DNA from: an uncultured Mollicutes bacterium | GTDB taxonomy: Bacteria; Bacillota_I; Bacilli_A; ML615J-28; CAG-313 | Length of the DNA stretch: 64,000 nt | Direction of reading: 5' to 3' | Assembly: GCA_900539265.1 (NCBI GenBank) | Contig: UQBM01000004.1 | Span: forward strand, 7,982 to 71,981 | In this document: one piece after another, positions 2,714 through 42,629 of the stretch | Position numbering within the stretch: the stretch's first letter is position 1 | Layout of the letters: each line of letters starts with the position of its first letter | Notes under the pieces: model-generated | Told to the model about the DNA's origin: nothing | Seen by the model: only the letters and a program-made list of their open reading frames with translations | The model's database searches: none | Translations under genes and position numbers: made by a program

Positions 2714-3292
2714 ATGGTAGTAAAAGATATAGCGATTGTTGGAAGTGGTCTTGTAGTTTCAAGAAAAAAGGCAATTCACACAAAAGATATCATCAAGTCA
2801 TACAAACAATTAAATCTTAGAGCAATCAATAAAAATGGATATATAGAAGAACAGGAATTAGAAATATTAAATGTAAAAGAAATTATAGATGATTATTATC
2901 TTACACATGAAGGAGATATAATTGTTAGATTAACTGATCCTTTCACTGCTATATATATTAGTAAAGATATGGAAAATATTGTAATCAGCTCAAACTTCTG
3001 TGTAATAAGATGTTCAGAAAATTACTGCCCTGATTTTTTATCTTATTATATAAATAGTGATTCTGCAAGAAAATCATTATTAAGTAATCTGCAAGGATCT
3101 ATAATGAAGAATATAAATATGTCTGCAATTGGAGAAATGGAAATCCCGAATATCCCTTTAAAGAAACAGCATATAATTGGAAATTTGTTTAAAGCACAAA
3201 CACAAAAAATTATTATATTAAATAAAATACAAGAAAAGGAAGATAAATTACAAAAAGCTATTTTAGTAAAAATAGAAAATATGGAGGATTAA
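2714..3292 (+). CDS. hsdS: Half-size Type I R-M specificity subunit (single target-recognition domain HsdS)
   Basis: 192 aa. C-terminal IPNIPLKKQHIIGNLFKAQTQKII resembles the conserved HsdS central/coiled-coil motif (iPlPpl.EQ..Iv). Only one TRD is present. GGAGG RBS; sits directly upstream of hsdR. Confidence 0.6.
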   Translation: MVVKDIAIVGSGLVVSRKKAIHTKDIIKSYKQLNLRAINKNGYIEEQELEILNVKEIIDDYYLTHEGDIIVRLTDPFTAIYISKDMENIVISSNFCVIRCSENYCPDFLSYYINSDSARKSLLSNLQGSIMKNINMSAIGEMEIPNIPLKKQHIIGNLFKAQTQKIIILNKIQEKEDKLQKAILVKIENMED

Positions 3293-3294
3293 TA

Positions 3295-6396: not shown

Positions 6397-6398
6397 AA

Positions 6399-7121
6399 AT
6401 GAAGTATGAATTTTCTTATAACGGAAAAACAATAGCTTATGAAATAATTTATAAGAAAGTAAAAAATATCAATATAAGAGTTAAACCAAGTGGAGAAGTT
6501 GTTGTTTCTTGTAATGAATCAATTGATAATAAAACTATTGAGTTAGAAATGATTAAACGAGCAAACTGGTTATTGGATACTATTGATAAATATAAAACAA
6601 ATTTAATTGAATTCGTTGATTCAAATCTTAGTTTGGTTGATGGAGAAGCTTTCTTAATATTAGGAAAAGTATTAAGAATTAAAAATATTGAATCAAATCA
6701 GTTTAAAATTGACTATGATAATAACTATTTATACATTTATAGACCAAATCAAAGAGGTATAAAGATGAAATTCAATCAATGGTATTTAAATTTTGTTACT
6801 TCCCAATTTAATGATATGGTAAATAAAGCATATAAAAAGTTTGAAAAATATGGTATTGTAAAACCAGAAGTTATTTATAAAAATATGAAAACTAGATGGG
6901 GAACTTGCAATATTGAAAAAGCTTTAATAACATTAAATATTCAGTTAATTAAAGTAGACCCATTTTTAACTGAGTATGTAATATGTCATGAATTGACACA
7001 TTTAAAATATAGAAATCATAATAAAGATTTTTATACATTCTTAACAGCAATGATTCCAGATTGGAAACAAAGAGAACAAATTTTAAACAATATTTTTATA
7101 AATAATTTAGGAGGTATTTAA
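6399..7121 (+). CDS. YgjP-like (DUF45/M48-type) zinc metallohydrolase embedded in the R-M operon
   Basis: 240 aa. WGTCN...ICHELTHLKYRNHNKDFY matches the WGSC and HExxH motifs of the YgjP/SprT-like family. Translationally coupled between hsdR and hsdM. Confidence 0.75.
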   Translation: MKYEFSYNGKTIAYEIIYKKVKNINIRVKPSGEVVVSCNESIDNKTIELEMIKRANWLLDTIDKYKTNLIEFVDSNLSLVDGEAFLILGKVLRIKNIESNQFKIDYDNNYLYIYRPNQRGIKMKFNQWYLNFVTSQFNDMVNKAYKKFEKYGIVKPEVIYKNMKTRWGTCNIEKALITLNIQLIKVDPFLTEYVICHELTHLKYRNHNKDFYTFLTAMIPDWKQREQILNNIFINNLGGI

Positions 7122-7122
7122 A

Positions 7123-8634
7123 ATGACAACTAAAGAAGATATTCAAAAAGTCTTATGGAACGCTGCAGGAAGTTTTAGAGGAAAAATTGATAGTGGTAAG
7201 TATAAAGATTATATTTTATCAATGCTTTTCGTAAAATATTTAAGTGATGCGATTAAAGAAACGAAAGAAGAACTTATTAAAAAATATAATGGTGATGAAG
7301 AAAGAATTCAAAGAGCTTTACAAAGAGGAAGATTCTTTGTTCCTGATGAAGCAACATTTGATTACTTATATGATAATAAAAAGGCAACAGATATTGGAAG
7401 TAAAATTAATATTGCTTTAAAGGCAATTGAAAATGCAAATGGCGGTAAATTAAGAAATATCTTTGGCCAAATTGATTTTAATTCTCAAGAACTTGGAGAT
7501 GGAAGAGAGAAGGTTGCATTATTAAGTAACTTCCTTGAAGATTTCAGTTCTATTGATTTAAGACCAAGCCAATTAGAAGGTGTTGATGAAATTGGTAATG
7601 CTTATATGTATATGCTTGCAGTTTTTGCTAGTGATGCAGGTAAAAAAGGTGGCGAATTTTATACACCTGAACAAGTATCAGAAATCCTTGCGAGAGTCGT
7701 AGAACCTAAAGAAAATGATCGTATTTATGATGGTGCTTGTGGTTCTGGTTCTTTATTAATTAAAGCATTCAATCAAGTGTCTAATAGAAAAGCACAAATT
7801 TATGGACAAGAGAGAAACTTCCAAACTTGGGGTTTATGTAGAATGAATATGTTTATTCATAACATCGATGATGCTATTATTTATCAAGGTGATACTATTT
7901 CAAACCCTCAAAATATTGAAGATGGAAAGTTAATGCAATTTCAATGTATAGTTGCAAATCCACCATTCTCATTAGATAAATGGGCAAATGGTTATGCAGC
8001 AGATAGTAATGACAAAGATTTCAAAATGTCAAAAGAACTAGACCCATATAAACGTTTTGATTGGGGTGTTCCACCAAAAAGTAAAGGTGACTATGCTTTC
8101 ATACTTCATATGTTGCATTGTCTTGATGGTAATAATGGTAGAATGGCAATAATTATGCCTCATGGTGTTTTATTCAGAGGAGCAAGTGAAGGCGAAATTA
8201 GAAAGAAACTTATTGATCTTAACTTATTAGATGCTGTAATTGGATTGCCTGCTAACCTTTTCTACGGAACAAGTATTCCTGCTTGTATTCTTGTATTTAA
8301 GAAAAATAGAGCAAATAAAGATGTTGTTTTTATTGATGCATCAAAGGACTTTGAACAAGGTAAAAATCAAAACAAATTAAGACCTGAAGATATTGATAAG
8401 ATTGTATCAACATATAAAGCAAGACAAGAAGTTGAAAAATATTGTCACATAGCAAAAATAGATGAAATTAAGGAAAATGATTATAATTTAAATATTCCTC
8501 GTTATGTAGACACATTTGAAGAAGAAGAACAAATTGACATTCATGCAGTAATGGCAGAAATTAAAGAATTAGAAAAACAAAGAACAGAACTTGATAAAGA
8601 AATAGAGGGTTATCTTAAGGAATTAGGATTATAA
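7123..8634 (+). CDS. hsdM: Type I R-M N6-adenine DNA methyltransferase (HsdM)
   Basis: 503 aa. NPPF catalytic motif (VANPPFS) and an AdoMet-binding-like DGACGSGS motif; HsdM N-terminal domain. Confidence 0.9.
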   Translation: MTTKEDIQKVLWNAAGSFRGKIDSGKYKDYILSMLFVKYLSDAIKETKEELIKKYNGDEERIQRALQRGRFFVPDEATFDYLYDNKKATDIGSKINIALKAIENANGGKLRNIFGQIDFNSQELGDGREKVALLSNFLEDFSSIDLRPSQLEGVDEIGNAYMYMLAVFASDAGKKGGEFYTPEQVSEILARVVEPKENDRIYDGACGSGSLLIKAFNQVSNRKAQIYGQERNFQTWGLCRMNMFIHNIDDAIIYQGDTISNPQNIEDGKLMQFQCIVANPPFSLDKWANGYAADSNDKDFKMSKELDPYKRFDWGVPPKSKGDYAFILHMLHCLDGNNGRMAIIMPHGVLFRGASEGEIRKKLIDLNLLDAVIGLPANLFYGTSIPACILVFKKNRANKDVVFIDASKDFEQGKNQNKLRPEDIDKIVSTYKARQEVEKYCHIAKIDEIKENDYNLNIPRYVDTFEEEEQIDIHAVMAEIKELEKQRTELDKEIEGYLKELGL

Positions 8635-8648
8635 AGAGGTCATGACTA

Positions 8649-9806
8649 ATGAGTGAAAAAACAATCAATAAAGTCCCTAATGTTCCCAATTTAAGATTCT
8701 TCAATGATGACAACACTTGGTCAAATTCATCTCTTGAAAAAAAGTGTAAATTTGTTGGTGGTGGGACACCATCAACATTGAATCAAGATTATTGGAATGG
8801 AGATATTGCATGGATATCATCAGCTGATTTACTTGAAGAAAATGTTCATAAATACAATGTAAGTCGATTCATAACAAAAGAGGCCATAATGAATAGTGCC
8901 ACAAAAATATGTCCTATTAATACGATAATGATAGTGTCGAGAGTTGGTGTGGGAAAAATAGCAATTAGTAATTCTGAAATATGTACTAGTCAAGATTTTA
9001 CAAATCTCACAGAATATCAATTTGATAAAAACTTTTTAGTTTATTCACTTAAAAACACTATAGAAAAACTTAAAAATTCATCTCAAGGAACATCAATAAA
9101 AGGAATTACATCAAAAGAGATAAAGCAAATAAATATCTTCTATCCAGAAATAATCGAACAATGTAAAATAGGATTGTTTTTCAAAAAAATAGATGAACGA
9201 ATAGAGTTTCAAAGCAAAATCATTAACAAACTTGAATCCTTAATATGTACTTTAAGGTCTACAATTTTTAATAGTTATAACTGGGAATGGAATAGATTAG
9301 ATACTTATATTAAATCTGGTATTATTACATTAAAGCGTGGAAACGTTATTCCTAAACATGATGAGGACAGTGAATTTAAATTTCCAGTATATTCGTCATC
9401 AATACATAATAATGGTTTAATGGGTTATAACAATTCATACATGTTTGATAAAGAATTAATTACATGGTCTGTTGATGGTGGTGGAAACTTCTTTTATAGA
9501 CCTAAGCATAAATTTAATGTTACAAATGTCTGTGGAATTATGGAAATAACAGACAATTCATATAATTATAGATTTTTATCAGAAATTCTTTTAGCACAAC
9601 ATTCAAGACTTATATTCGATTATCAAACAAAAGCACACCCTAGTGTTATTGAGAAATTATATAAAATACCCAATGTGGATATAAAAATTCAAGAAAAAAT
9701 AGCTTATATATTTGAGCTTTATTACACAAAGTTACAAAAAGAAAAAGATATACTTTCACTTTATAAAAAGCAAAAAGCATATCTTCTCCAAAATATGTTT
9801 ATATAA
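8649..9806 (+). CDS. hsdS: Type I R-M specificity subunit (HsdS), expressed copy with two TRDs
   Basis: 385 aa. N-terminal KVPNVPNLRF conserved motif; central IDERIEFQSKIINKLESL and C-terminal conserved repeats typical of HsdS. Confidence 0.85.
   Translation: MSEKTINKVPNVPNLRFFNDDNTWSNSSLEKKCKFVGGGTPSTLNQDYWNGDIAWISSADLLEENVHKYNVSRFITKEAIMNSATKICPINTIMIVSRVGVGKIAISNSEICTSQDFTNLTEYQFDKNFLVYSLKNTIEKLKNSSQGTSIKGITSKEIKQINIFYPEIIEQCKIGLFFKKIDERIEFQSKIINKLESLICTLRSTIFNSYNWEWNRLDTYIKSGIITLKRGNVIPKHDEDSEFKFPVYSSSIHNNGLMGYNNSYMFDKELITWSVDGGGNFFYRPKHKFNVTNVCGIMEITDNSYNYRFLSEILLAQHSRLIFDYQTKAHPSVIEKLYKIPNVDIKIQEKIAYIFELYYTKLQKEKDILSLYKKQKAYLLQNMFI
8674..8698. repeat. Inverted repeat IR1, left copy (5' end of expressed hsdS)
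   Basis: TCCCtAATGTTCCCAATTTAAGATT. It is the reverse complement of 10925-10949, with 20 contiguous identical nt plus 4 more after one mismatch, and it encodes the shared PNVPNLRF segment. Confidence 0.8.
9210..9226. repeat. Inverted repeat IR2, left copy (central conserved region of expressed hsdS)
   Basis: CAAAGCAAAATCATTAA. A 17/17 reverse-complement match to 10358-10374, lying between TRD1 and TRD2. Confidence 0.6.
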
Positions 9807-9813
9807 ACATATT
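9792..9813. repeat. Perfect 22-bp palindrome at the tail-to-tail junction of the two hsdS genes
   Basis: AATATGTTTATATAAACATATT is its own reverse complement. It contains the stop codons of both convergent hsdS ORFs, and both end in ...NMFI. Confidence 0.85.
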
Positions 9814-11019
9814 AGCTAATAAATATTTCTTTTGTAAAAGATAGTCATTAAGAATTTGTTCTTCAATGGCTATTTTTTTGTCAAGTGATGTTACGATTAA
9901 AGTAATTTTAGAAATTAATTCCTTATTAGGGATCTTAACTTTAATACCAGTAAGAGTAGATAAGACTATATAAGGCATTGCTCCTACATTTTTTTCACGA
10001 TGTAGTTTTTTAGGAAGTTCAATTTCTAAAGCGAATTTTATATACAATGGATTTTTTATAAAATTTTGCAAAACATATGTTCTCTGATATGCATCAAACT
10101 TACCATTAAAATATTTAATTAATCCAACTTCACCATTTCCAGAAATTATTAACGATTCTCCTTCAAATGAGTATTTGTCTATATAATAATCTTCTTTAGC
10201 ACAAGTGAAGAATTTATATTTACCGTTAGGATTCATAGCATTTGCATCTAATTTTCCAGTTGTAATACTACATAGTTGATTTAAGGATATGTAATCAAAA
10301 TCATTTAAATCATTATAAATAGTATGTAGAATTCTATTTCTATAAGATTTATATTCCTTAATGATTTTGCTTTGGGTTAAAATTCTTTCATCAATCATTG
10401 ATAAGAATTTTCCAATTTTATTTTGTTCTTCTATTGTTGGAGTATAAAGTTTTAAGTTCTTTAGCTCTGGAATTCCAATTCTTTGACGTGTTGATCCGGC
10501 AGTTTTTGAGGCTATTATTTTTCTAATATTTTTTGTGTTAATTTGTTCTCTCATAAAAAGTTTATTACATTTTTTAATATCTAAATTAACTCGTATAGCA
10601 TCGGAACCTAACACATATCTTTTATAAAAATCATGAGCAATACAGCAACGACCTGCAGGCATCATTTTAGCAATAATTAAATCACCTGGATATGCGTTGT
10701 TTGCAATTAAACTATCAGCTTTTTTTACACTTGTGAATATTAATCTTTCAGTAAAATTTAAATAATCTTCTGTTATATTACTTAATTGAATGATAGGAAC
10801 ACCATCCAGCGTATAATCATTTGTCTTTAAATCTGACCCAAAAGGTCCGCCAGCAAAAGATTTTTTTTCATTTGTCGTAAGTAATTCTAGGCTTGTTGTT
10901 GTCCACTCATATATAAATTCAGGAAATCTTAAATTGGGAACATTGGGGATTTTATTCCTTATAATATTTAAAAATTTATTAAATTGACTTATGTATAGGA
11001 GGTAATTAATATGACTCAA
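9799..11019 (-). CDS. hsdS: Inverted silent hsdS cassette, convergent with and overlapping the expressed hsdS
   Basis: 406-aa ORF on the minus strand. It has the IPNVPNLRFP motif, the central IDERILTQSKII motif and the same C-terminal NMFI ending as the expressed hsdS. Its first about 23 codons (upstream of the inverted repeat) are probably not native, and it has no obvious promoter of its own. Confidence 0.75.
   Translation of the reverse strand: MSHINYLLYISQFNKFLNIIRNKIPNVPNLRFPEFIYEWTTTSLELLTTNEKKSFAGGPFGSDLKTNDYTLDGVPIIQLSNITEDYLNFTERLIFTSVKKADSLIANNAYPGDLIIAKMMPAGRCCIAHDFYKRYVLGSDAIRVNLDIKKCNKLFMREQINTKNIRKIIASKTAGSTRQRIGIPELKNLKLYTPTIEEQNKIGKFLSMIDERILTQSKIIKEYKSYRNRILHTIYNDLNDFDYISLNQLCSITTGKLDANAMNPNGKYKFFTCAKEDYYIDKYSFEGESLIISGNGEVGLIKYFNGKFDAYQRTYVLQNFIKNPLYIKFALEIELPKKLHREKNVGAMPYIVLSTLTGIKVKIPNKELISKITLIVTSLDKKIAIEEQILNDYLLQKKYLLANMFI
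10358..10374. repeat. Inverted repeat IR2, right copy (central region of silent hsdS)
   Basis: TTAATGATTTTGCTTTG, the reverse complement of 9210-9226. Confidence 0.6.
10925..10949. repeat. Inverted repeat IR1, right copy (5' end of silent hsdS)
   Basis: AATCTTAAATTGGGAACATTgGGGA, the reverse complement of 8674-8698. Confidence 0.8.
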
Positions 11020-11934
11020 ATTAAATTAAGTCAGATAATTGACTTATGGAAGAAAGACAAAAAGCAATATGTTAAAAAATCAACATATTCTGCATATGTG
11101 CTTTTAGTTAAAAATCATTTATTACCATATTTTGGTGATAAATACGAAGTTGAGGAGTCAGATGTTCAAAAGTTTGTATTTGAAAAATTGGAACAAGGAC
11201 TTAGTCAAAAAACTATTATGGACATTTTGATTGTATTAAAGATGATACTTAAGTTTGGAGTAAAACATAGGTATTTGTCTTGTCGTGAAATTGAAATTAA
11301 ATTCCCCACACAAAGAGAAAATGAGGGACTTGAGGTATTAAGCCGTTCAAATCAAAGAAAAATAATGGATTATATTGAAAAAAATTTTACTTTTAAAAAC
11401 TTAGGCATTTATATTTGTTTGAGTACAGGATTAAGAATAGGAGAATTATGTGCGTTAACATGGGATGATATAGATGAAGATAATGGTGTTATTTTAGTTA
11501 GGAAAACTATTCAAAGAATATATGTTATTGATGATGTTAAAAAAAGAACTGAATTAATTATAGATACACCAAAGACTAAAAATTCGATCAGAGATATTCC
11601 TATGACATCGAATTTAATTAAGATAATTAAACCTATTAAGAAAATTGTAAATAATGAATATTATGTTTTGACTAATGATATTAAACCAACAGAACCTAGA
11701 ACATATAGGAATTATTATAAAAGGTTTATGAAAAAATTTGATATTCCGGATTTAAAGTTTCATGGATTAAGACATAGTTTTGCAACTAGGTGTATTGAAG
11801 GAAAATGTGATTATAAAACTGTTAGCGTTATTTTAGGTCATTCAAATATAAGCACAACATTAAATTTATATGTCCACCCAAATCTTGAACAAAAGAAAAA
11901 ATGTATTAATCAGATGAATAGGTCATTAAGATAA
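11011..11934 (+). CDS. Tyrosine site-specific recombinase (phage-integrase family), putative hsdS invertase
   Basis: 307 aa. C-terminal catalytic signature HGLRHSFAT...LGHSNISTTLNLYVH (R-H-R-Y family). Its start overlaps the 5' end of the inverted hsdS by 9 nt. Confidence 0.85.
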   Translation: MTQIKLSQIIDLWKKDKKQYVKKSTYSAYVLLVKNHLLPYFGDKYEVEESDVQKFVFEKLEQGLSQKTIMDILIVLKMILKFGVKHRYLSCREIEIKFPTQRENEGLEVLSRSNQRKIMDYIEKNFTFKNLGIYICLSTGLRIGELCALTWDDIDEDNGVILVRKTIQRIYVIDDVKKRTELIIDTPKTKNSIRDIPMTSNLIKIIKPIKKIVNNEYYVLTNDIKPTEPRTYRNYYKRFMKKFDIPDLKFHGLRHSFATRCIEGKCDYKTVSVILGHSNISTTLNLYVHPNLEQKKKCINQMNRSLR

Positions 11935-23546: not shown

Positions 23547-23741
23547 ATGACTGGAAAAGAATTATTATATGTTGAAGATGCTCTTGGGCATATTAAACAT
23601 ATGAAAACGATTTGTGAAACTTATTCAAGAAATTTACAAGATCCTAATTTAAAGGCTTTTGTAGAAACTCTTAGACAAAGAAATCAGGAGTTAGAAACAA
23701 AATTTTTAAATGTTTTAGGAGGTGCTACAAATGGACGATAG
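23547..23741 (+). CDS. Small CotF-like (spore coat protein F family) protein
   Basis: 64 aa with AAGGAGGA RBS. Helical, ferritin-like pattern; overlaps the next CotF-like ORF by 20 nt. Confidence 0.45.
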   Translation: MTGKELLYVEDALGHIKHMKTICETYSRNLQDPNLKAFVETLRQRNQELETKFLNVLGGATNGR

Positions 23742-23979
23742 AGCGTTAATGGAAGATTTACTATTAGTTACCAAAGGCGTTTGTGATTTGTATATGCATG
23801 GAACAATTGAATCATCAACTCCTCATATTTTAACAACCTTTAGCGATAGTTTAAATGATTCACTTGCGATGCAATCAGAAATTTACAAAACGATGGAACA
23901 AAAGGGTTGGTATCAAACAGATCCTGCTGATATCACAAAAATTAAAAAAGCTTACAATAAATTTACAACTCAAGCGTAG
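23722..23979 (+). CDS. CotF-like (Coat_F domain) protein
   Basis: 85 aa. DRALMEDLLLVTKGVCDLYMHGTIESSTPHIL...EIYKTMEQKGWYQ resembles the Coat_F consensus (dlL..eK.l...Y..a..E...p.lr......h...i...m...GWY). Confidence 0.5.
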   Translation: MLQMDDRALMEDLLLVTKGVCDLYMHGTIESSTPHILTTFSDSLNDSLAMQSEIYKTMEQKGWYQTDPADITKIKKAYNKFTTQA

Positions 23980-24142: not shown

Positions 24143-25810
24143 ATGTTAACTGATATTGAAATTGCGCAATCAATTCAACCTAAGAATATCAAAGAAATTG
24201 CTAGAAATGCAGGAATTGATGAAAAGTATTTAGAACAATATGGCAATTATAAGGCTAAGGTTGATCTTTCTATTATGAAAGATTTAAAAAAGGATCATTC
24301 TAAATTGATTCTTGTTACCGCAATCACACCAACTCCTGCTGGTGAAGGAAAGACTACTACGACAATTGGACTTGCTGATGGTCTAAAACAAATAGGTAAA
24401 AATGTAATGGTGGCATTAAGAGAACCATCGCTTGGACCAGTTTTTGGAATTAAAGGTGGAGCAGCAGGTGGTGGATATGCGCAAGTTGTGCCAATGGAAG
24501 ATATTAATCTGCATTTTACTGGTGATTTTCATGCAATAGGTGCGGCTAATAACTTACTTGCTGCAATGCTTGATAATCATATTTATCAAGGTAATGAATT
24601 AGGAATTGATTTAAATAAAATTACGTGGCACAGATGTGTTGATATGAATGATCGTCAACTGCGTTTTATTACCGATGGACAAGGTGGTAAATTTAATGGG
24701 GTTGAAAGACAAGATAGTTATGATATAACTGTTGCTTCTGAAATTATGGCCGTTTTATGTTTAGCAAGTTCTATTAGTGATTTGAAAAAACGTCTTGGTC
24801 AGATAATTGTTGGATATACTAGCGATGATAAGCCTATTACTGCTCACGATTTAAAAGCAGAAGGGGCTATGGCTGCACTTTTAAAAGATGCTTTAAAGCC
24901 AAATTTAGTTCAGACTTTAGAACATACACCAGCACTTGTGCATGGTGGACCATTTGCTAATATTGCTCATGGTTGTAATTCGGTAGTAGCAACGAAACTT
25001 GCTTTAAAATTAGGTGATTATGTTGTTACAGAGGCTGGTTTTGGTGCTGATCTTGGAGCTGAGAAATTTTTAGATATTAAGTGTCGAGTAGCGGGATTAA
25101 AGCCAGATGCAGTGGTAATTGTTGCGACAATTAGAGCTTTAAAGATGCATGGTGGTATGCCTAAGGAACTTTTAGCAAATGAGGATTTAACTGCTTTAGA
25201 AAAAGGTCTCCCTAATCTTTTAAGACATGTTTCCAATATTACAAATGTTTATAAATTACCATCAGTAGTTGCCATTAACCGCTTTCCTACCGACACTGAT
25301 CAAGAAATTGCCTTAATTATACAAAAATGTCAAGAACTTGGTGTTCATGTGGTTTTATCGACTGTTTGGGAAAATGGTGGACAAGGTGGTATTGAATTAG
25401 CAAAAGAGGTTGTCAAACTTTGTGAAGAAAAAAATGATTTTACCTTTAGTTATGAAACAAATCTATCTATTGAAGAAAAAATTGAGGCTGTTGTGACTAA
25501 AATATATGGTGGCAGCAAAATTAAAATCTTAAATAGTGCTAAAGAACAAATTAAAAGACTTGAAGAATTAGGGTTTGGTAACTTACCTATTTGTATAGCT
25601 AAAACTCAATATAGTTTTTCCGATGATGCAACGAAACTTGGTGCCCCTTGTGATTTTATCGTTACGGTAAGAAATGTTAAGATTAGTGCAGGAGCAGGAT
25701 TTATCGTAGTTTTGACGGGTAAAATCATGACAATGCCAGGTCTTCCAAAGGTTCCTGCTGCTGAGGGAATTGATGTTGATGATGATGGGAAAATTTATGG
25801 TTTATTTTAA
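24143..25810 (+). CDS. fhs: Formate--tetrahydrofolate ligase
   Basis: 555 aa. Canonical FTHFS N-terminus (MLTDIEIAQ...), [17 protein letters not shown]-loop, and a C-terminus ending ...DGKIYGLF. Confidence 0.95.
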
Positions 25811-25852
25811 ATAAAAAATATTTGCAAATTATGTGCTAAATAGAAATAATTT

Positions 25853-25861
25853 TGGTATAAT
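25853..25861 (+). promoter_or_regulatory. Extended -10 promoter (TGgTATAAT) for the pyr leader transcript
   Basis: TGGTATAAT at 25853-25861. No well-spaced -35 (TTGCAA lies 28 nt upstream). About 35 nt upstream of the leader ORF. Confidence 0.4.
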
Positions 25862-25896
25862 ATCCAAAAGTATAAAATAATTGAAGAGGTAGTGCT

Positions 25897-25995
25897 ATGA
25901 ATAAAAAGGGAACAACTAAATTTTCATTCAATAATGGATATGAAAAGTTAGCCTTCTTTTTCTCATTTTTTAGCATTAAGATGATTGTAAAATAA
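25897..25995 (+). CDS. Putative pyr operon leader peptide (32 codons)
   Basis: ATG at 25897 preceded by a GAAGAGG RBS. Encodes MNKKGTTKFSFNNGYEKLAFFFSFFSIKMIVK. The FFFSFF codons form a U-rich tract (TTCTTTTTCTCATTTTTT), and the TAA stop lies inside the 5' arm of the downstream terminator hairpin. Confidence 0.45.
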   Translation: MNKKGTTKFSFNNGYEKLAFFFSFFSIKMIVK

Positions 25996-26024
25996 CTTGA
26001 TTTTTTCAAGTTATTTTTTATTTT
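25989..26024 (+). terminator. Attenuator/terminator hairpin between the leader ORF and pyrB
   Basis: AAAATAACTTGA-ttttt-TCAAGTTATTTT (perfect 12-bp stem) followed by a U-rich tail, 18 nt upstream of the pyrB GTG. Confidence 0.55.
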
Positions 26025-26041
26025 AATTAGGAGGTAATAAA

Positions 26042-26917
26042 GTGAAAAATTTATTTAGTTTACGTGAATTATCAAACGAAGAAATTAAACGTATTTTAGA
26101 TGATGCAATGGCTTTTGAAAATGGTCTACAATATGATTTATCCAATAAAATGATTGCTAATCTTTTTTTTGAACCATCAACAAGAACTCAATATTCCTTT
26201 CAAGTTGCACAGGCTAAATTAAAGATGAAAAGCATAAATTTTAATCCAGTTGGTTCTTCTTTAACGAAAGGAGAAAGTTTTTATGATACAGTTAAAACTT
26301 TTGCTTCCTTTGGAATTGATGCCCTTGTTATTCGCCATGTTCAAAATCGCTATTATGATGAACTTAAAAATCTTAATATTCCGATTATTAATGCTGGGGA
26401 TGGAACAGGTGATCATCCAACTCAAACTCTTTTAGATTTATATACGATTTATAAAGAATTTAAACATTTTACAAATCTTAATATTTTAATTGTAGGAGAT
26501 ATTTTACATTCCAGAGTTGCTCATGGAGGACTTGACATTATGAGACGCCTTGGAATGAATTGTTATATTGCGAGTCCTAATGAATATAAAGATGAAACAT
26601 TAGGTTATCAATATGTTAATCTTAATGATAGCATTAAAGATATGGATGTTATTATGCTTTTAAGGGTCCAAAATGAAAGGCATCATGAAAAAAGCAAGAT
26701 TACAAATGAGGAATATAATAGACTATATGGTCTAAATATAGAAAAGGTAGCTCTTATGAAAAAACAGGCAATTATTATGCATCCAGCTCCTTTTAATAGG
26801 GGTGTAGAAATTACTGATGAGGTTGTCGAATGTGAAAAATCAAGAATTTTTGCGCAAATGACTAATGGTGTTTTTGTTAGACAAAGTATTTTGAAAAGGA
26901 CTTTTACCGATGAATAA
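26042..26917 (+). CDS. pyrB: Aspartate carbamoyltransferase catalytic subunit
   Basis: 291 aa with GTG start and GGAGG RBS. STRTQ (EPSTRTQYSF) and HPTQ motifs. Confidence 0.9.
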   Translation: MKNLFSLRELSNEEIKRILDDAMAFENGLQYDLSNKMIANLFFEPSTRTQYSFQVAQAKLKMKSINFNPVGSSLTKGESFYDTVKTFASFGIDALVIRHVQNRYYDELKNLNIPIINAGDGTGDHPTQTLLDLYTIYKEFKHFTNLNILIVGDILHSRVAHGGLDIMRRLGMNCYIASPNEYKDETLGYQYVNLNDSIKDMDVIMLLRVQNERHHEKSKITNEEYNRLYGLNIEKVALMKKQAIIMHPAPFNRGVEITDEVVECEKSRIFAQMTNGVFVRQSILKRTFTDE

Positions 26918-28169
26918 AACAACGTTAAAAAATGGTTTAGTTTATTATCAATCATCGTTAGTAAAAGTAAATATTGTAATTGAAGGAAGTAAAATAATAA
27001 AGATTGGTTCAAATTTAGAAGAAGGAAAAATAATTGATTGTACAAATCAATTAATAGCTCCAGCTTTTATAGAAGCACATGCACATTTTAGAGAACCAGG
27101 TTTTGAATATAAAGAAACAATTAAAACTGGTAGTATGGCCGCTGCTAAAGGTGGTTATACCAAAGTAATGATGATGCCTAATTTAAATCCTGCTCCTGAT
27201 ACTTTAAATAAAATTAAAAAAATGAAAGCAATTTGTCAAAAAGATAGTCTAATTGAATGTTATCCGCTTGCAACTATCACTAAAAAGCGTTTAGGTAAAG
27301 AGTTAGTCAATTTTGCTACTTTAAAAGATGAAGTAATTGGTTTTAGTGATGATGGAAGTGGAATTCAAAATAGTAAAGTTATATATGATGGTCTTTCTAA
27401 GTTAAAAGATGCTAAAAGTGTAATGATATGTCATTGTGAAGATGTGAATTTAGTGGAAGGAGGCGTTATTAGGGAATCAGATTATGCGAAACTTCATCAT
27501 TATCGTGGAATTAATCCTTTAAGTGAAACGCTTGAGGCTATTAGAAATATGGAAATCGCATATGTCTTAAATACTAGAATTCATCTATGCCATATTTCTA
27601 GTAGATACACAGTTTGGGCAATCAAACAATTTAAAAAGATGGGATGTAAAGTTAGTGCTGAGGTAACTCCTCACAATTTAATATTTACAATTAATGATAT
27701 AGAAGATGATGGTCGATTTAAAATGAATCCTCCTCTTGGAGATGAAGAAGATCAAAAAGTTTTATTAGAAGGATTACTTGATGGGACAATTGATTTTATC
27801 GCTACTGATCATGCTCCTCATAGTGTTTTAGAAAAAAGTGGTGGCCTTAATAATAGTTTATTTGGTATTGTTGGTTTAGAAACAGCTTTTTCATCAATGT
27901 ATACATATTTTGTTAAAACAAAGAAGATGCCACTAGAATTATTACTAGACTTAATGAGCAAGAAAATTAGTGATAGTTTTAATATCAATGATAATCAAAT
28001 AAAAGTTGGCAATGATGCCTCAATTGTGATTATTGATTTAAAACAAAAATTTATAGTAGATTCAAATAAATTTCTTAGTAAAGGAAAATCATCCATTTTT
28101 GAGGGGAAAACATTATATGGAGTTATTGAAAAAACCATATCAAAAGGAGAAATAGTATATGAAAAATAA
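26910..28169 (+). CDS. pyrC: Dihydroorotase
   Basis: 419 aa. HAHFREPG and DHAPH metal-binding motifs; overlaps pyrB by 8 nt. Confidence 0.9.
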   Translation: MNKTTLKNGLVYYQSSLVKVNIVIEGSKIIKIGSNLEEGKIIDCTNQLIAPAFIEAHAHFREPGFEYKETIKTGSMAAAKGGYTKVMMMPNLNPAPDTLNKIKKMKAICQKDSLIECYPLATITKKRLGKELVNFATLKDEVIGFSDDGSGIQNSKVIYDGLSKLKDAKSVMICHCEDVNLVEGGVIRESDYAKLHHYRGINPLSETLEAIRNMEIAYVLNTRIHLCHISSRYTVWAIKQFKKMGCKVSAEVTPHNLIFTINDIEDDGRFKMNPPLGDEEDQKVLLEGLLDGTIDFIATDHAPHSVLEKSGGLNNSLFGIVGLETAFSSMYTYFVKTKKMPLELLLDLMSKKISDSFNINDNQIKVGNDASIVIIDLKQKFIVDSNKFLSKGKSSIFEGKTLYGVIEKTISKGEIVYEK

Positions 28170-29253
28170 GAAATTAGTATTAGCAAGTGGTGAAATTTTT
28201 TATGGAATTGGTTATGCTAGTGATGTTGAGACCATAGCTGAAATTGTTTTTAATACTTCAATGGTTGGCTATCAAGAGATAGTAACTGATCCATCATATT
28301 ATGGTCAAATTGTAGTTATGAGTTATCCTTTAATCGGAAATTATGGGGTCAATCAAGATGATATTGAATCTCGTCAAATTTTTTTAAGTGGTCTTGTTAT
28401 TAAAGATTATAATGATTTTCCATCTAATTTTAGATGCCAAAAAGAATTACAAAAATTGCTTGAAGAAAACAATGTTCCTCTTATTAGCGATGTTGATACT
28501 AGAAAAATTGTTAGAATAATTCGAGAAAAAGGATCAATGCCTGCCATTATTACAGATGCGTTAACTCCTAATGACAAATGTTTGGAAAAACTTCAAAATT
28601 ATAGTTATAAAAAAAATCAAGTTAGTAATGTTTCCCTTACAAAGGTTGCCACATATGATGTTTTAGATTATAGATATGTAGTTGTTTGTATAGATTTTGG
28701 TTGTAAATATAACATTATTCGAAAATTGAATGCTTTTAAATGTAAGGTCATAGTTGTGCCTTATGATACATCATATCAAGAAATAGTAAAGTATCAACCA
28801 GATGGTTTATTCTTATCAAATGGGCCAGGAGATCCTACAGATAATAAAGTGGCAATTGAAGTGGTTAAAAACTTAAAAGGAAAATTGCCAATCTTTGGTA
28901 TATGTTTAGGTCATCAAATTATTAGTCTTGCTAGTGGAGCAACTACTTATAAATTAAGATTTGGTCATCGTGGTGCTAATCATCCAGTTAAAAATTTAGA
29001 AACTCAAAAAATCGAAATTACTCCACAAAATCATTCTTTTGCTGTCGAAAAGCAATCACTTGAAAAAACAGATTTAAGCATATCGCATATAAATTTGCTT
29101 GATGATACAATAGAAGGACTTGAAAATAAGGATCAAATGATTTTTAGTGTGCAGTATCATCCAGAAGCTAGTTCTGGACCTGAAGATAGTGAGTATTTAT
29201 TTTCTAAATTTATTAATTATATGGAGAAATTCAAAGGAGAAAAAAATGCCTAA
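28159..29253 (+). CDS. carA: Carbamoyl-phosphate synthase small (glutaminase) subunit
   Basis: 364 aa. GICLGHQ catalytic Cys motif of the class I glutamine amidotransferases. Confidence 0.9.
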   Translation: MKNKKLVLASGEIFYGIGYASDVETIAEIVFNTSMVGYQEIVTDPSYYGQIVVMSYPLIGNYGVNQDDIESRQIFLSGLVIKDYNDFPSNFRCQKELQKLLEENNVPLISDVDTRKIVRIIREKGSMPAIITDALTPNDKCLEKLQNYSYKKNQVSNVSLTKVATYDVLDYRYVVVCIDFGCKYNIIRKLNAFKCKVIVVPYDTSYQEIVKYQPDGLFLSNGPGDPTDNKVAIEVVKNLKGKLPIFGICLGHQIISLASGATTYKLRFGHRGANHPVKNLETQKIEITPQNHSFAVEKQSLEKTDLSISHINLLDDTIEGLENKDQMIFSVQYHPEASSGPEDSEYLFSKFINYMEKFKGEKNA

Positions 29254-32200
29254 AAGAAAAGATATCAAAAAAATTTTAGTTATTGGGTCGGGACCAATTG
29301 TTATTGGTCAAGCAGCGGAATTTGATTATGCTGGAACACAGGCTTGTCTTGCTATTAAAGAAGAAGGATATGAGGTAGTCTTAATTAATTCAAATCCTGC
29401 AACAATTATGACTGATTATGCCATAGCTGATAAGGTATATATGGAACCCTTAAATTTAGAATTTGTTTCAAGAGTAATTAGAATGGAAAGACCTGATGGT
29501 ATTGTTTGTACACTTGGAGGACAAACAGCCTTGAATTTAGCAGTTCAATTGGCCGAAAAGGGGATTTTAGAAGAATGTCAAACTGAGATTTTAGGAACAG
29601 ATTTTACTTCAATTAAGCAAGCAGAAGATCGAGAGTTGTTTAAAGAATTATGTCAACGAATTAAAGAGCCGATTTTAGAAAGTAAAACAGTTTTTACACT
29701 TGATGATGTTTTAGATGTTGCAAATGATATTGGCTATCCCATCATTGTAAGACCAGCTTTTACGTTAGGTGGTACTGGTGGTGGTTTTGCAAGTTCAGAT
29801 GAAGAGCTATTACCATTAGCCAAACATGCTTTAGAATTATCACCAGTTAATCAAATTCTAATTGAAAAATCAATCAAGGGTTATAAAGAAATTGAATATG
29901 AGGTGATGAGGGATGCTAATGATACCGCAATTGCTATATGTAATATGGAAAATATTGATCCTGTAGGAATTCATACTGGTGATTCAATGGTAGTTTGTCC
30001 AACACAAACTCTAACAAATAAGGAATGTCAAATGTTAAGAAATGCAGCTTTAAAAATTGTTAGAGCTCTTAAAATTAAGGGAGGTTGCAATGTTCAGTTT
30101 GCGCTTGACCCTAATTCTTTTACTTATTATGTAATTGAGGTTAATCCTAGGGTATCTAGATCATCAGCTCTTGCATCTAAGGCATCGGGATATCCAATTG
30201 CAAGAGTTAGTGCTAAAATTGCTATTGGATTAAATTTAGATGAAATTAGAATTGCTAATACAATCGCAGCTTTTGAACCAGCCCTTGATTATGTTGTTAC
30301 TAAGATTGCAAGATTTCCTTTTGATAAATTTGTGACTGCCAATAAAACTTTATCAACCCAAATGAAAGCAACCGGAGAAGTGATGAGCATTGGAAGAACT
30401 TTTGAAGAAAGTTTTTTGAAAGCAATTCGATCACTTGAAATAGGGGTTGATCATATTTATCTTGAAAAGTTTGATAATCTTGATGCTAATTTTCTCAAAA
30501 ATTATATTGTAGAAGCAACCGATGAAAGAATTTTTGCCATTGCTGAATTATTACGAAGAAATATAACAATTAGTGAAATATATGAATTGACAAAAATTGA
30601 TAAATACTTTTTATATCGAATTAAAAGTATTATTGAATTAGAAAATCAACTTAAAAAAAATTGTCACTTGAATAATATAAAAAAGGCTAAAAAGAAAGGC
30701 TTTAGTGATAGCTATTTGGGTAAACTTTTGGGTATTAGTGAATGTGAATTTTATAAATATCGCTTGAAACATAATCTTTTTCCTGTTTATAAAATGATAG
30801 ATACTTGTGCTGGTGAATTTGCTAGTTACATTCCTTACTTTTATTCAAGTTATGAAGATGAAAATGAATCAATTGTTAGTAATAAGCCAAAAATTATTGT
30901 TTTAGGTTCTGGTCCAATCCGAATTGGACAAGGAGTTGAATTTGATTATTCAACTGTTCATGCTATTTGGGCCATAAAGGAGATGGGTTATGAAGCAATT
31001 GTGATTAATAATAATCCTGAAACGGTATCAACAGACTATTTAGTTACGGATAAGTTATATTTTGAACCTTTAACAATTGAAGATGTAATGAATATTGTAC
31101 ATCTTGAAAAACCTGCTGGTGTTATTGTTGAATTAGGTGGTCAAACAGCTATTAATCTTTGCGAAAGATTAGATAATCTAGAAGTACCCATTATTGGAAC
31201 TGGAAGGGATGCGATTGCAAAAGCTGAAAATCGTGAACTATTTGAGGAACTTTTAAAAAAATTAAATATTTTGCGTCCGGCTGGCAAGACTGTGCTTTCT
31301 TTAACTGAAGGGTTAGAGGTTGCTAGAACGCTTGGTTATCCTGTTTTAGTTAGACCCTCATATGTTTTAGGAGGAAGAGCTATGCAAGTAGTTTATAATG
31401 ATAAAGGTCTTAAAAAATATCTTCATAATGCCTTTTTAGCATCATATAAACAGCCAGTTTTAATCGATAAATATATTATAGGTAAGGAATGTGAAATTGA
31501 TGCTATCTGTGATGGTAATGATGTGGTGATTCCTGGTGTAATGGAATTAGTAGAAGGAACTGGCATTCATTCTGGTGATTCTATTAGTGTTTATCCACCT
31601 ATGACTTTGAGTTCAAAAGTAATTGATAAAATGGTTGATTATACAATTCAATTAGGAAAAGCAATTGGCATTATCGGTTTGTACAATATTCAATTTATTG
31701 TTGATAATAAAGAAGATGTTTATATTATTGAGGTTAATCCAAGAAGTAGTAGAACAATTCCTTTCATTTCTAAAGCTACTAAAGTCAATCTTGCCAATCT
31801 TGCTACAAAGGTAATCCTTGGTAAATCACTAAAAGATTTAGGTTATCAAACGGGGTTACTACCAAAGCAAAATAAATATTATGTAAAAGCTCCAGCTTTT
31901 AGTTTTAGTAAACTTTCTGGAATGGATTTAGTATTGTCACCTGAAATGAAATCAACAGGGGAAGCCATAGGATATGATAGTTCTTTAAATAAGGCTTTAT
32001 ATAAAGCTTTGATTGCATCAAATATGAGAGTTGTTAATTATGGTACAATTTTTGTAACTTTATCTGATATGACTAAAGAAGAGGCACTACCTTTAATTAA
32101 AAGATTTTATGATTTAGGATTTAATATAGAGGCTACAAGTGGAACTGGTAAATTTTTAAAAGAACATGGAATTAGAACTAGAATTAAGAAAAAATTAAAT

Positions 32201-32412
32201 CAAGGTAGTACTGAAATTCTTGATTCTCTTCGCAAAGGTCATATTGCTTATGTTATTAATACTCCTGGTACTGATGAAACAATTAATACTGATGGATATT
32301 TGATTAGAAGGGTTGCAATTGAAAATAATGTTCCGTTGTTTACTTCTTTGTATACTGTTGGAGCTTTGCTTAATGTTTTAGATGAGATTACAATGAAAGT
32401 AGGAATGATCTA

Positions 32413-32413
<1 letters not shown>
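29246..32413 (+). CDS. carB: Carbamoyl-phosphate synthase large subunit
   Basis: 1055 aa from the ATG at 29246 (MPKRKDIKKILVIGSGPIVIGQAAEFDYAG). The ORF-track start at 29147 is an in-frame upstream extension overlapping carA. Two ATP-grasp halves and a C-terminal MGS-like domain. Confidence 0.9.
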
Positions 32414-34054
<1,641 letters not shown>

Positions 34055-34063
34055 GGAGGAAAT

Positions 34064-34768
34064 ATGGTAATTGTAGCATTAGATTTTGAAAATTATCAAA
34101 AAGTGGAAGAATTTTTAAATCACTTTAAAACTCCTATCTATGTTAAGGTAGGTATGGAGTTATTTTATCAAGAAGGTATAGAAGCAATTAAAAAAATTAA
34201 AGCCAGGGGTCATAAAATTTTTCTTGATTTAAAACTTCACGATATTCCCCATACGGTATATAATGCATCAAAACGTCTTGCTAATCTCGATGTAGATATA
34301 ATTAATTGTCATGCGGCAGGGGGAATTAAAATGATGAAAGCATGTTTAGAAGGAGTTATGGAAGTTTCCTCTCAAAAAAAACTTCCTAAAAGACCACTTG
34401 TAATTGCCGTTACGCAACTTACTTCAACAAGTAAACAGGTGATGAATCAAGAATTAGGAATGAATGGTGAAGTAGTTGATATGGTTATCAAATATGCTCA
34501 GAATGCCAAATTAGCAGGACTTGATGGTGTTGTTTGTAGTCCTTTAGAAGCACAAAAAGTTAAGGAAGTTTGTGGTAAAAATTTCATTACTATAACTCCT
34601 GGTATTAGACCAACCACAGCAGAGATAGATGATCAAGTACGGATTACAACGCCTCAAATGGCTAAAGAAATGTGCTGTGATTTTATTGTTGTCGGAAGAC
34701 CTATTACAAAAGCTCAAAATCCTAAAGAAGCATATTTTAATATTAAGAAAGAATTTTTAGGTGAATAG
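34064..34768 (+). CDS. pyrF: Orotidine-5'-phosphate decarboxylase
   Basis: 234 aa. VALD...DLKLHDIP motif (catalytic D-x-K-x-x-D). Confidence 0.9.
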   Translation: MVIVALDFENYQKVEEFLNHFKTPIYVKVGMELFYQEGIEAIKKIKARGHKIFLDLKLHDIPHTVYNASKRLANLDVDIINCHAAGGIKMMKACLEGVMEVSSQKKLPKRPLVIAVTQLTSTSKQVMNQELGMNGEVVDMVIKYAQNAKLAGLDGVVCSPLEAQKVKEVCGKNFITITPGIRPTTAEIDDQVRITTPQMAKEMCCDFIVVGRPITKAQNPKEAYFNIKKEFLGE

Positions 34769-35399
34769 AATGAAAGAAATTGCAAAAGACTTATTAGATA
34801 TTAAAGCGGTCTTTTTATCTCCTTTAAAGCCTTTTACTTGGGCAAGCGGAATTAAATCGCCAATTTATTGTGATAATCGTTTAACCCTTTCTTATCCAGT
34901 TATTAGAAAAAAAATTGAACAAGAAATGTCCAAGATTATTAAAGAGAAATATTCTCAAGTTGAAATCTTAATGGGAACCGCAACTGCAGGAATTCCTCAT
35001 GCTGCATATATTAGTGATCTTTTGGATTTACCAATGGGTTATGTACGCAGTAGTGCTAAAGCTCATGGCAGACAAAATCAAATTGAGGGTAAATATGAGA
35101 AAGGCCAAAAAGTTGTTGTTATTGAAGATTTAATTTCAACTGGTGGTAGTAGTATTGAGGTTGTAAAAACTTTAGAAGAAGCGGGATTAATTGTTATAGG
35201 TGTTGTTGCTATTTTTAGTTATAATTTACAGGTAGCAAAAGATAATTTTGAAAAAATAAAATGTCCTGTTTCTGTGGTGACTAATTATGATGAACTTTTA
35301 GAAGTAGCATTATCACTAAATTATATTGATTATCTTACAAAAGAGAAATTACTTAAATGGAAATTAAATCCCCATGATGAAAGTTGGATGAATAAGTAA
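34761..35399 (+). CDS. pyrE: Orotate phosphoribosyltransferase
   Basis: 212 aa. PRPP-binding motif VVVIEDLISTGGS. Confidence 0.9.
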   Translation: MNRMKEIAKDLLDIKAVFLSPLKPFTWASGIKSPIYCDNRLTLSYPVIRKKIEQEMSKIIKEKYSQVEILMGTATAGIPHAAYISDLLDLPMGYVRSSAKAHGRQNQIEGKYEKGQKVVVIEDLISTGGSSIEVVKTLEEAGLIVIGVVAIFSYNLQVAKDNFEKIKCPVSVVTNYDELLEVALSLNYIDYLTKEKLLKWKLNPHDESWMNK

Positions 35400-35424: not shown

Positions 35425-35460
35425 AAAAAGCATTTTTAAATTTTAATAAAAATGCTTTTT
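35425..35460. terminator. Bidirectional terminator between convergent pyrE and the phosphatase gene
   Basis: AAAAAGCATTTTT-aaattttaat-AAAAATGCTTTTT: a perfect 13-bp inverted repeat with A/T runs on both sides. Confidence 0.6.
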
Positions 35461-42086: not shown

Positions 42087-42629
42087 ATGAATATTAACAA
42101 TAATATTAAAAAGACTTTAATTACAAAAGAAATGTTAGATGAGCGTATTTTAGAAATCGCTAAAAAGATTAGTATAGATTATTTAGATAAAAATCCTGTA
42201 ATGATTTGTCTTTTAAAGGGCAGTGTATCATATTTTTCTCACTTATGCGAAAATATTAATATTCCGCTTGAGTATGAATTTTTACGCGCATCTAGTTATC
42301 ATGGTGCGACTACTACAGGTGAAGTAAAATTATTACACGTACCAACGATTCCTCTAAAAAATCGTCATGTAATTATTGTTGAAGATATTATTGATACAGG
42401 TCTTACGCTTGCAGCAATCAAAAAGGTAATTCAAGATATGGAACCATCATCTTTAGAAATCACTACCCTTCTTGATAAACCATCAAGAAGATTAGAACAT
42501 AGCATTGTTCCTAAATATGTTGGATTTACGATTCCTGATGAATTTGTTGTTGGTTTTGGCCTTGATTATAATGAACAATATCGTAATCTTCCTTATATTG
42601 GTGTTTTAAAAGAAGAAATTTATAAATGA
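42087..42629 (+). CDS. hpt: Hypoxanthine(-guanine) phosphoribosyltransferase
   Basis: 180 aa. PRPP-binding motif VIIVEDIIDTGLTL. Confidence 0.85.
   Translation: MNINNNIKKTLITKEMLDERILEIAKKISIDYLDKNPVMICLLKGSVSYFSHLCENINIPLEYEFLRASSYHGATTTGEVKLLHVPTIPLKNRHVIIVEDIIDTGLTLAAIKKVIQDMEPSSLEITTLLDKPSRRLEHSIVPKYVGFTIPDEFVVGFGLDYNEQYRNLPYIGVLKEEIYK

Follow-up and report, generated by a model that had tools for sequence, protein, structure and literature searches.

The textbook contrast in the control of pyrimidine synthesis is that enterobacteria sense UTP (uridine triphosphate) by polymerase kinetics combined with a coupled ribosome, whereas Firmicutes use the RNA-binding protein PyrR. Which of these strategies operates in the sequence directly 5' of the pyrimidine-synthesis (pyr) genes of an uncultured human-gut bacterium of the Bacilli class? 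We addressed this question in a 64-kb stretch of its DNA (64,000 nucleotides, hereafter the window), in which the pyr leader extends from a putative transcription start near 25868 to the pyrB start codon at 26042. An initial annotation had read this leader as an Escherichia coli pyrBI-type attenuator, in which a U-rich leader-peptide open reading frame (ORF) ends inside a terminator, and not as a target of PyrR. On the evidence below, we tentatively regard it as a ribosome-dependent, pause-gated transcription attenuator of the pyr operon that resembles pyrBI and arose independently, a reading to which we assign slightly less than an even chance.

A leader reading frame that ends inside a terminator

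Immediately upstream of pyrB, the + strand encodes an intrinsic terminator or attenuator (25989-26024; UUUUUUAUUUU) with a perfect 12-bp stem, a 5-nt loop, and a U-run. Its arms, AAAATAACTTGA (25989-26000) and TCAAGTTATTTT (26006-26017), enclose the loop TTTTT and are followed by TT-A-TTTT up to position 26024, so that the element ends 17 nt before pyrB. The predicted free energy of the hairpin (-10.8 kcal/mol) matches that of the terminators found after real genes in the window, which by the same measure reach -10.9 (pyrE) and -12.1 to -14.3 kcal/mol elsewhere; accordingly, it is predicted to be a terminator of normal strength for a genome of 29% GC. In a consensus scan, the interval from the hairpin to pyrB was free of predicted + strand promoters. 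Transcription of pyrB must therefore cross the hairpin, and any termination there amounts to attenuation.

The hairpin overlaps a leader ORF of 32 codons (25897-25995, + strand), which encodes the peptide MNKKGTTKFSFNNGYEKLAFFFSFFSIKMIVK. A Shine-Dalgarno (SD) sequence, AAGAGG (25884-25889, + strand), is located 7 nt before its ATG at 25897 and is 100% conserved in the second species that carries this leader; an AAGAGGT motif at similar spacing also precedes real genes at 6399 and 8649. The TAA stop codon (25993-25995) occupies positions 5-7 of the 5' arm of the terminator. Both the good ribosome-binding site with its 32-codon frame and the stop inside a perfect 12-bp hairpin with a U-run had been proposed in the initial annotation, and sequence and fold bear them out; indeed, every sequence element that it listed lies where it had been placed. 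Among random 231-nt leaders of equal composition generated with a first-order Markov model (Markov-1), only 0.46% contained an SD, an ATG, and an ORF of at least 32 codons. The combination of SD and ORF is more than chance.

The leader ORF is skipped by gene callers in the window species, for whose leader peptide no database entry was found; the peptide of the other species has been called once. Neither peptide matched a Pfam family at E-values up to 10, the PyrBI_leader family included. The window peptide contains 7 phenylalanines (Phe) in 32 codons, and its C-terminal half is hydrophobic.

Absence of a PyrR box and of an RNA antiterminator

The initial annotation had reported that the leader lacks a PyrR-binding loop, and Rfam, a sequence pattern, and a clade-tuned model all agree on this point. 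Searched with Rfam, the leader gave nothing at gathering score and only noise at E-values up to 10. Since the Rfam PyrR model at gathering score also missed most of the obvious PyrR loops of relatives, we built a clade-specific covariance model, R1, from the PyrR boxes of 15 relatives, keeping L004, L036, and L012 as held-out positives. Against 41-48 bits on these three loci, the best R1 score across the window and across 20 kb of the same species was 14.7 bits; for the leader, searched unfiltered, it reached 7.3 bits. The ARUCCNGNGAGGYU-type pattern of the initial annotation likewise had no match in the leader. Elsewhere, this pattern matched AATCCAGCGAGGTT at 52436-52449 (minus strand), which is antisense within an ORF (50786-52861) that is probably fusA, encoding EF-G; the match is unsupported by R1 and we judged it to be due to chance.

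The initial annotation had seen no pyrR or pyrP upstream, and neither lies nearby in the window. In the search for pyrR that it had suggested, tblastn detected no pyrR in the 64-kb window, and all 8000 candidates listed by a database search with the PyrR of a relative were generic PyrRs, none attributable to this species. A 180-residue phosphoribosyltransferase encoded at 42087-42629, the sole one of its kind in the window, was considered as a PyrR candidate and was identified as Hpt.

PyrR attenuators further rely on mutually exclusive antiterminator and terminator folds, and the predicted folds of the leader contain no such pair. We compared the minimum free energy (MFE) of the transcript ending before the 5' arm with that of the transcript ending after arm and loop. 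Upstream pairing of the 5' arm gains -1.0 kcal/mol in the window and 0.0 kcal/mol in the second species (L001, CAG:324), compared with -5.0 to -8.4 kcal/mol in six relatives with RNA switches, where this gain corresponds to the antiterminator. Candidate antiterminators formed by the 5' end of the leader or by UUAAG/CUUGA were rejected as weak and not conserved in L001. With the binding stem-loop and the exclusive folds, its two defining features, both tested and absent, the leader is not a PyrR attenuator (RF00515).

Because the 5' arm has no upstream RNA partner, the transcript would terminate by default, and read-through would require a non-RNA occupant of the arm. Only a ribosome standing at the final codons or at the stop of the leader ORF would be placed to play this part. 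In E. coli, termination fell from ~90% to <10% when a stop codon was moved from 28 to 5 nt upstream of a terminator, and suppression of the terminator by the ribosome was lost beyond a stop distance of ~27-30 nt; the pyrBI attenuator is named as the tightly pause-controlled case (PMC4824070). The geometry of the window leader, with its stop inside the arm, fits ribosome-mediated anti-termination of this kind.

Leaders of related pyr operons

We searched for this leader design by a genome scan, a metagenome scan, a list of PyrB homologues, and nine contig look-ups, and found it in two species only: the window species and 'Staphylococcus sp. CAG:324', whose PyrB is 92% identical. The next-closest PyrB proteins are 63-67% identical, and six of their loci were examined. 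In five (L061, L062, L070, L071, and L072), a PyrR-type loop is visible upstream of pyrB, as in AGUCCAGAGAGGCU and UAUAGCCCGAGAGACUAUA, and the sixth (L059) shows no more than an AT-rich variant; none of the six has a leader ORF preceded by an SD. The prevalence of PyrR-type loops in these outgroups makes the window design, which the initial annotation had called unusual for Firmicutes, unusual in its own neighbourhood. PyrR-type loops were also seen in Holdemania, other Erysipelotrichaceae, Izemoplasma, and Proteiniclasticum, and the stem changes around the CAGAGA-type loop look compensatory by eye (GUC/GGC to GUG/CAC; uncounted).

Terminators were also observed in the pyrB leaders of distant relatives (PyrB 53-67% identical), namely in L018 (3900-4000), L046, L051, and L054 (~2850-3000), L013 (~2900-3020), and L059 (~3850-4000). 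A clear RNA antiterminator accompanies the terminator in L018, L046, and L054, as judged by folding; in L013 one was seen by eye only, and none is predicted in L059 (gain -0.2). Searched with R1, the leaders of L018, L046, L054, L013, and L059 gave no match. Some distant leaders carry a small hairpin, such as AGUCUAAAAAGACU, at the position of the PyrR loop. Judging from sequence, these leaders may hold either a very diverged PyrR site or an unrecognised sensor.

One apparent exception, L034, looked like an 85% relative with a PyrR leader and was set aside as an assembly chimera or recombinant with a junction ~110 nt into pyrB. In this metagenome contig, a PyrR-type leader of higher GC content, continuing into the first ~37 codons of a foreign pyrB (positions 1-577), is joined to sequence that is 89% identical to the window (positions 578-3395).

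A pyrimidine tract, predicted pauses, and a putative helix at the initiation site

Codons 20-25 of the leader ORF (FFFSFF) form a U/C tract, TTCTTTTTCTCATTTTTT (25954-25971, + strand), which lies 18-35 nt upstream of the hairpin. The initial annotation had extended the U tract to codon 26; codons 20-25 do belong to it, but codon 26 (AGC) lies outside. UTP is needed at 14 of the 18 tract positions; over 20 nt, the pyrimidine content is 95%, including five C. No other tract with at least 14 T and at least 17 pyrimidines per 18 nt exists on the + strand of the window.

The tract contains two TTNTTT motifs, TTCTTT (25954-25959) and TTTTTT (25966-25971), with predicted pauses at 25964 and 25976, respectively. 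In Bacillus subtilis, the NusG pause motif is TTNTTT at positions -11 to -6 of the non-template strand, and a hairpin located 11-13 nt upstream enhances pausing (PMC9963633). Co-transcriptional folds of the leader predict a candidate pause hairpin, CUAA.AUUUUCAU...AUGAAAAG.UUAG (25916-25951, + strand). With its 3' end at 25951, this central hairpin stops 13 nt short of the predicted pause at 25964, and at that pause the fold of the window sequence leaves both SD and AUG unpaired. In the tlrB leader of B. subtilis, a NusG-dependent pause allows time for translation of the leader peptide (PMC6851288, PMC12288461).

Such a pause would be of particular weight in this host. In Bacilli generally, transcription is of the runaway type, with ribosomes lagging behind, and purine-rich genes are a signature of this state (PMC13323073). 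Gene sense strands in the window are 56% purine, compared with a reported 54% in B. subtilis. Given runaway transcription in Bacilli and the purine signature of the window, a ribosome-dependent attenuator would need a dedicated pause. In a host of this class, this pause is more likely to be assisted by NusG and TTNTTT than to be limited by UTP alone.

The tract is also predicted to take part in a long-range helix. MFE and consensus folds place the 5' strands of this helix at 25890-25912 (+ strand), with UAGUGCUA at 25890-25897, including the A of the AUG, and AAAGGGAA at 25905-25912. The partner of 25890-25897, and hence the 3' strand of a helix that would sequester the AUG, is UAGCAUUA (25971-25978, + strand). 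The tract itself is predicted to serve as a 3' strand for either of two partners, codons 3-6 or the SD, depending on transcript length. Whether the partner is the SD or the AUG together with codons 3-6, pairing of the tract and UAGCAUUA is predicted to be worth -13 to -19 kcal/mol. A within-species single-nucleotide polymorphism in the UAGCAUUA strand (C to U in L027) converts a G-C pair to G-U and is also synonymous.

The composition of the tract and its changing partners raise the prospect of a switch that works independently of the ribosome, either by Rho loading on the tract or by UTP-dependent transcription speed alone selecting between folds. Rho does target pyrimidine-rich nascent RNA in Bacilli with runaway transcription (PMC13323073), and both the richness in pyrimidines, including the five C, and the dependence of tract pairing on transcript length suit such a switch. 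We nevertheless consider it highly improbable: the tract measures only ~20 nt, a competent intrinsic terminator follows it after 18 nt, no alternative fold touches the terminator arms, and no reiterative-transcription motif is conserved between the two species.

Conservation of the leader between two species

The leader is nearly invariant within each species. Between the two species, it diverges by ~11%, compared with 33-40% at the four-fold degenerate sites of fhs, pyrB, and pyrC. The conserved positions are concentrated in three blocks. The first, 100% identical, covers the SD, the ATG, and codons 1-7 (35 nt, 25884-25918); the second, also 100% identical, covers the tract and the following AGCATT (24 nt, 25954-25977); the third extends from the terminator through the pyrB SD (~57 nt) and is identical except for a loop that is 1 nt shorter in the second species. 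These rates indicate that the leader is under purifying selection.

The ORF of the second species has equal length, frame, and stop, with 13 nucleotide and 9 amino acid differences and no insertions or deletions. The 13 substitutions are confined to the variable codons 8-19 and 27-31, where every changed codon is non-synonymous. This pattern fits a leader ORF whose peptide sequence is unimportant but is no proof of translation. The conservation in related genomes on which the initial annotation had made its proposal depend is partial: the leader is kept in the second species but is absent from the next relatives, and no compensatory pairs were seen.

The same comparison bears on whether the leader regulates at all. 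The ORF could encode a small hydrophobic protein that happens to end in a leaky terminator, or the hairpin could be a constitutive partial terminator or an RNA-stability element that does no more than fix the level of pyr expression. The hydrophobic C-terminal half of the peptide would suit the former, ordinary genes often have their stops near or within terminator stems (PMC4824070), and pyrimidine regulation of the leader is something that we only infer. However, the variable parts of the peptide evolve neutrally (9 of the 32 residues differ, with no codon changed only synonymously), and the peptide matches no family. Moreover, nucleotide conservation is far above neutral, non-coding parts included, and the presence of a unique U/C tract where relatives have their pyrimidine sensor argues for a sensor. 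A leader with no regulatory role is in our view quite unlikely.

We consider it just as improbable, if not marginally more so, that the leader is a ribosome-dependent attenuator responding to the status of translation, be it general ribosome or charged-tRNA availability or Phe-tRNA, and not to UTP. This alternative shares its entire anatomy with a UTP-sensing attenuator, and the clustered Phe codons of the tract recall the E. coli pheL and pheM leaders. Slow translation would lead to termination, since a ribosome that stalled in the tract would not reach the 5' arm; the same logic is known from Tn916 tetM orf12 and E. coli rph-pyrE. Yet the downstream genes are for pyrimidine, not Phe, synthesis, and the 2:3 antiterminator of classical amino-acid attenuators is absent. 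The choice between UUC and UUU is conserved, which fits a nucleic-acid signal better than a codon signal, albeit as a weak test (~2 synonymous changes expected, 0 seen).

Weighing a ribosome-dependent attenuator against an RNA-binding site

Several observations weigh against a ribosome-dependent, pause-gated attenuator. The design is confined to two closely related species, and the next relatives (PyrB 67%) are without it. Retention of the ORF is not significant, as 13 random substitutions keep the frame open in 38-44% of simulations, and the exclusively non-synonymous changes give no sign of selection on the peptide. In the two-species comparison, compensatory changes number 0 for any helix, and the z-scores for folding (-1.7 and -2.3) are modest. 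For the CAG:324 species (L001), folding predicts no equivalent of the central hairpin, which is the variable part of the leader between the two species. As for pausing, most TTNTTT motifs are not strong pause sites and the motif alone is insufficient (PMC12288461), while the 56% purine bias suggests a genome of the runaway type, in which coupling would rest wholly on the predicted pause. Low UTP would also slow polymerase in the U-run of the terminator itself, which alone would favour termination. The pyrBI-type interpretation of the initial annotation is supported in part, by the missing PyrR loop, the missing antiterminator, and the fitting geometry, but is weakened by its restriction to two species, the lack of compensatory pairs, and the non-significant ORF retention.

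Furthermore, what selection has preserved in the SD/AUG block could be a pairing strand of RNA or a site for protein binding, and not a translation signal. This leads to the most serious alternative, in which the hairpin spanning 25890-25978 docks a trans-acting factor, either a diverged PyrR or another protein or ligand, and the ORF is incidental. The two best-conserved blocks are mutually complementary, most of the close outgroups examined use a protein-binding RNA at the same position, and the absence of selection on the peptide is what an incidental ORF would show. R1 fails to recognise the leaders of L018, L046, L054, L013, and L059, from which it follows that sensors may diverge fast in this group, and the absence of pyrR holds for the 64-kb window and not for the whole genome, leaving room for a gene elsewhere.

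On the other side, the leader has no PyrR box by any test and no antiterminator on which a bound factor could act, in contrast to L018, L046, and L054. A binding RNA also leaves unexplained the SD, the ATG, the 32-codon frame, and the stop in the terminator arm (<0.5% by chance), and the modest z-scores and lack of covariation count against it as well. On balance, we regard a binding RNA as unlikely, though it deserves to be kept in mind. Should the ORF prove incidental, what remains is a diverged leader, with an unrecognised sensor, in two gut species.

A proposed mechanism

Returning to the ribosome-dependent attenuator, the following sequence of events would account for the arrangement of its elements, with translation, pausing, gating by the helix, and the response to pyrimidines all deduced from sequence. 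Transcription would begin near 25868, and by default the hairpin and U-run would terminate a leader transcript of ~150 nt. Read-through would occur when a ribosome stands at the last codons or the stop while polymerase makes the 3' arm, its footprint covering the 5' arm and loop. The U/C tract would set the synchrony between the two machines, since low UTP, and low CTP (cytidine triphosphate), would lengthen the pause there.

The pause would also delay exposure of the tract and UAGCAUUA. Once exposed, these segments could pair with the SD, AUG, and codons 3-6 (~-19 kcal/mol) and close the initiation site; the pause would thus both let a ribosome load before closure and keep it close behind polymerase. 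At low pyrimidine levels, a long pause would allow the ribosome to load and follow, the terminator would be blocked, and the pyr genes would be transcribed. At high levels, polymerase would run ahead, the initiation site would close or the ribosome would lag, and transcription would terminate.

A more doubtful proposal is the evolutionary one: that a genus of uncultured gut Bacilli may have dropped the PyrR switch, which its close relatives retain, and independently evolved a pyrBI-like, ribosome-dependent, UTP-sensing attenuator, in which a NusG-type pause in the tract both synchronises the ribosome with polymerase and holds the initiation window open until the tract folds back onto the SD and AUG.

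If this reading is true, nucleotide sensing through transcription-translation coupling would extend to a Firmicute, in a lineage with genes seemingly adapted to runaway transcription, and local, pause-enforced coupling would be possible in bacteria thought to transcribe uncoupled. It would also mean that repression without a repressor is a solution that can evolve repeatedly, and that regulatory leaders turn over at the genus level while the operon stays fixed. The system is compact, at ~175 nt.

Promoter and operon

The promoter region (25822-25861, + strand), located by sequence and consensus scan, contains an extended -10 element, TGgTATAAT, at 25853-25861, in agreement with the initial annotation. 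An overlapping alternative promoter combines TTGCAA (25822-25827), a 17-nt spacer, and AATAAT (25845-25850). From these elements, transcription is expected to start at ~25868. The stretch 25814-25863 is almost unchanged in the CAG:324 species. We considered reiterative transcription at the start site and rejected it, as the initially transcribed sequence differs between the two species.

A perfect 10-bp palindrome, ATTTGCAAAT (25820-25829, in the context 25814-25842), lies just upstream of the pyr promoter or overlaps it, and its conservation in the CAG:324 species is 100%. It might serve as an operator or be no more than a -35 element (TTGCAA). In the variant contig L065, the palindrome region is swapped for unrelated sequence and the extended -10 alone is retained.

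Upstream of the leader lies fhs (24143-25810), as the initial annotation had claimed, and downstream the gene order is pyrB, pyrC, carA, carB, pyrK, pyrD, pyrF, and pyrE, all assigned by NCBIfam equivalog matches. The operon presumed to be regulated, pyrB-pyrC-carAB-pyrKDFE, spans 26029-35399 (+ strand), as defined by NCBIfam, the terminator scan, and matching gene calls on contigs from this species. It opens with the pyrB SD AGGAGG (26029-26034) and a GTG start at 26042, and the terminator scan places a terminator near 35430-35460, after pyrE. The + strand carries nearly all genes of the window.

Other features of the window were noted in passing. Between an HSP90-family gene and fhs, at 23547-23979, there are two small overlapping ORFs; according to gene calls on same-species contigs, one of them has a spore-coat Coat_F domain, which is unexpected in a small-genome, mollicute-like lineage of gut Bacilli. 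A type I restriction-modification locus (3295-11934) includes hsdR (3295-6396) and hsdM (7123-8634), followed by overlapping convergent ORFs at 8649-9806 (+) and 9799-11019 (-) and a tyrosine recombinase at 11011-11934, a layout that suggests a phase-variable hsdS shufflon. The gene at 48779-49576 encodes a C-terminal L15/L27A-like domain and contains in its body A-rich repeats with a period of ~40 nt, which appear on the opposite strand as six evenly spaced pyrimidine tracts (48972-49192). Across the whole 64 kb, Rfam at gathering score reported no family and no tRNA, riboswitch, T-box, or ribosomal-protein leader, a blank that extends even to the rpsL-rpsG-fusA-tuf region.

Comparison with known attenuators

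The pheL and pheM leaders of E. coli have consecutive Phe codons in a tiny ORF ahead of a terminator and act through a 2:3 antiterminator. These leaders control Phe-pathway or tRNA synthetase genes, whereas the window leader precedes pyr genes and has no antiterminator; of the features of a classical phe-type attenuator, it shares the Phe run alone. In E. coli rph-pyrE and in Tn916 tetM orf12, read-through of a terminator depends on how closely the ribosome follows polymerase. The upstream ORF is a full gene in rph-pyrE and the signal is charged-tRNA availability in Tn916, and neither has the U tract and AUG-closing helix of the window leader.

PyrR attenuation as in B. subtilis (RF00515) occupies the same operon and position in relatives and is likewise based on a pyrimidine-sensing 5' leader with a terminator. 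It differs in requiring a binding stem-loop (hexaloop CAGAGA, ARUCCAGAGAGGYU) and antiterminator/anti-antiterminator folds, both of which are missing from the window leader. The presumed pause logic of the window leader is shared by the tlrB (yxjB) and vmlR leaders of B. subtilis, which are also found in Firmicutes and combine a short leader ORF before a terminator with a T-rich NusG pause (PMC6851288, PMC9226507, PMC12288461); similarly, the TTCTTT of the window would cause a pause 13 nt after the predicted hairpin. These leaders sense antibiotic-stalled ribosomes through alternative hairpins, whereas the window leader has no alternative hairpin and would presumably sense nucleotide supply.

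Functionally closest is the enterobacterial pyrBI leader, which shares with the window leader a terminator ~20 nt before pyrB that overlaps a leader ORF, an upstream U-rich tract of Phe codons that could slow polymerase when UTP is scarce, and the lack of an antiterminator. In the Turnbough model of pyrBI (pyrL) attenuation in E. coli and Salmonella, there is no RNA antiterminator and the ribosome itself blocks the hairpin. The two leaders differ in the length of the ORF (32 codons in the window versus 44) and in its end, which lies in the 5' arm in the window and runs through the hairpin in pyrBI. The window leader further differs in its host, one of the low-GC gut Bacilli in which general coupling is doubtful (PMC13323073), in the use of NusG-type TTNTTT as the likely pause signal, in the predicted helix that would close the SD and AUG, and in a start site without a conserved UTP-sensitive reiterative-transcription motif. 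As its peptide matches no Pfam family, PyrBI_leader included, comparison at the sequence level indicates that the window leader is an analogue, not a homologue, of pyrBI/PyrL. At this same level, it nonetheless carries the structural features of the pyrBI class: a terminator, a translatable ORF, and a terminator arm free of any competing antiterminator.

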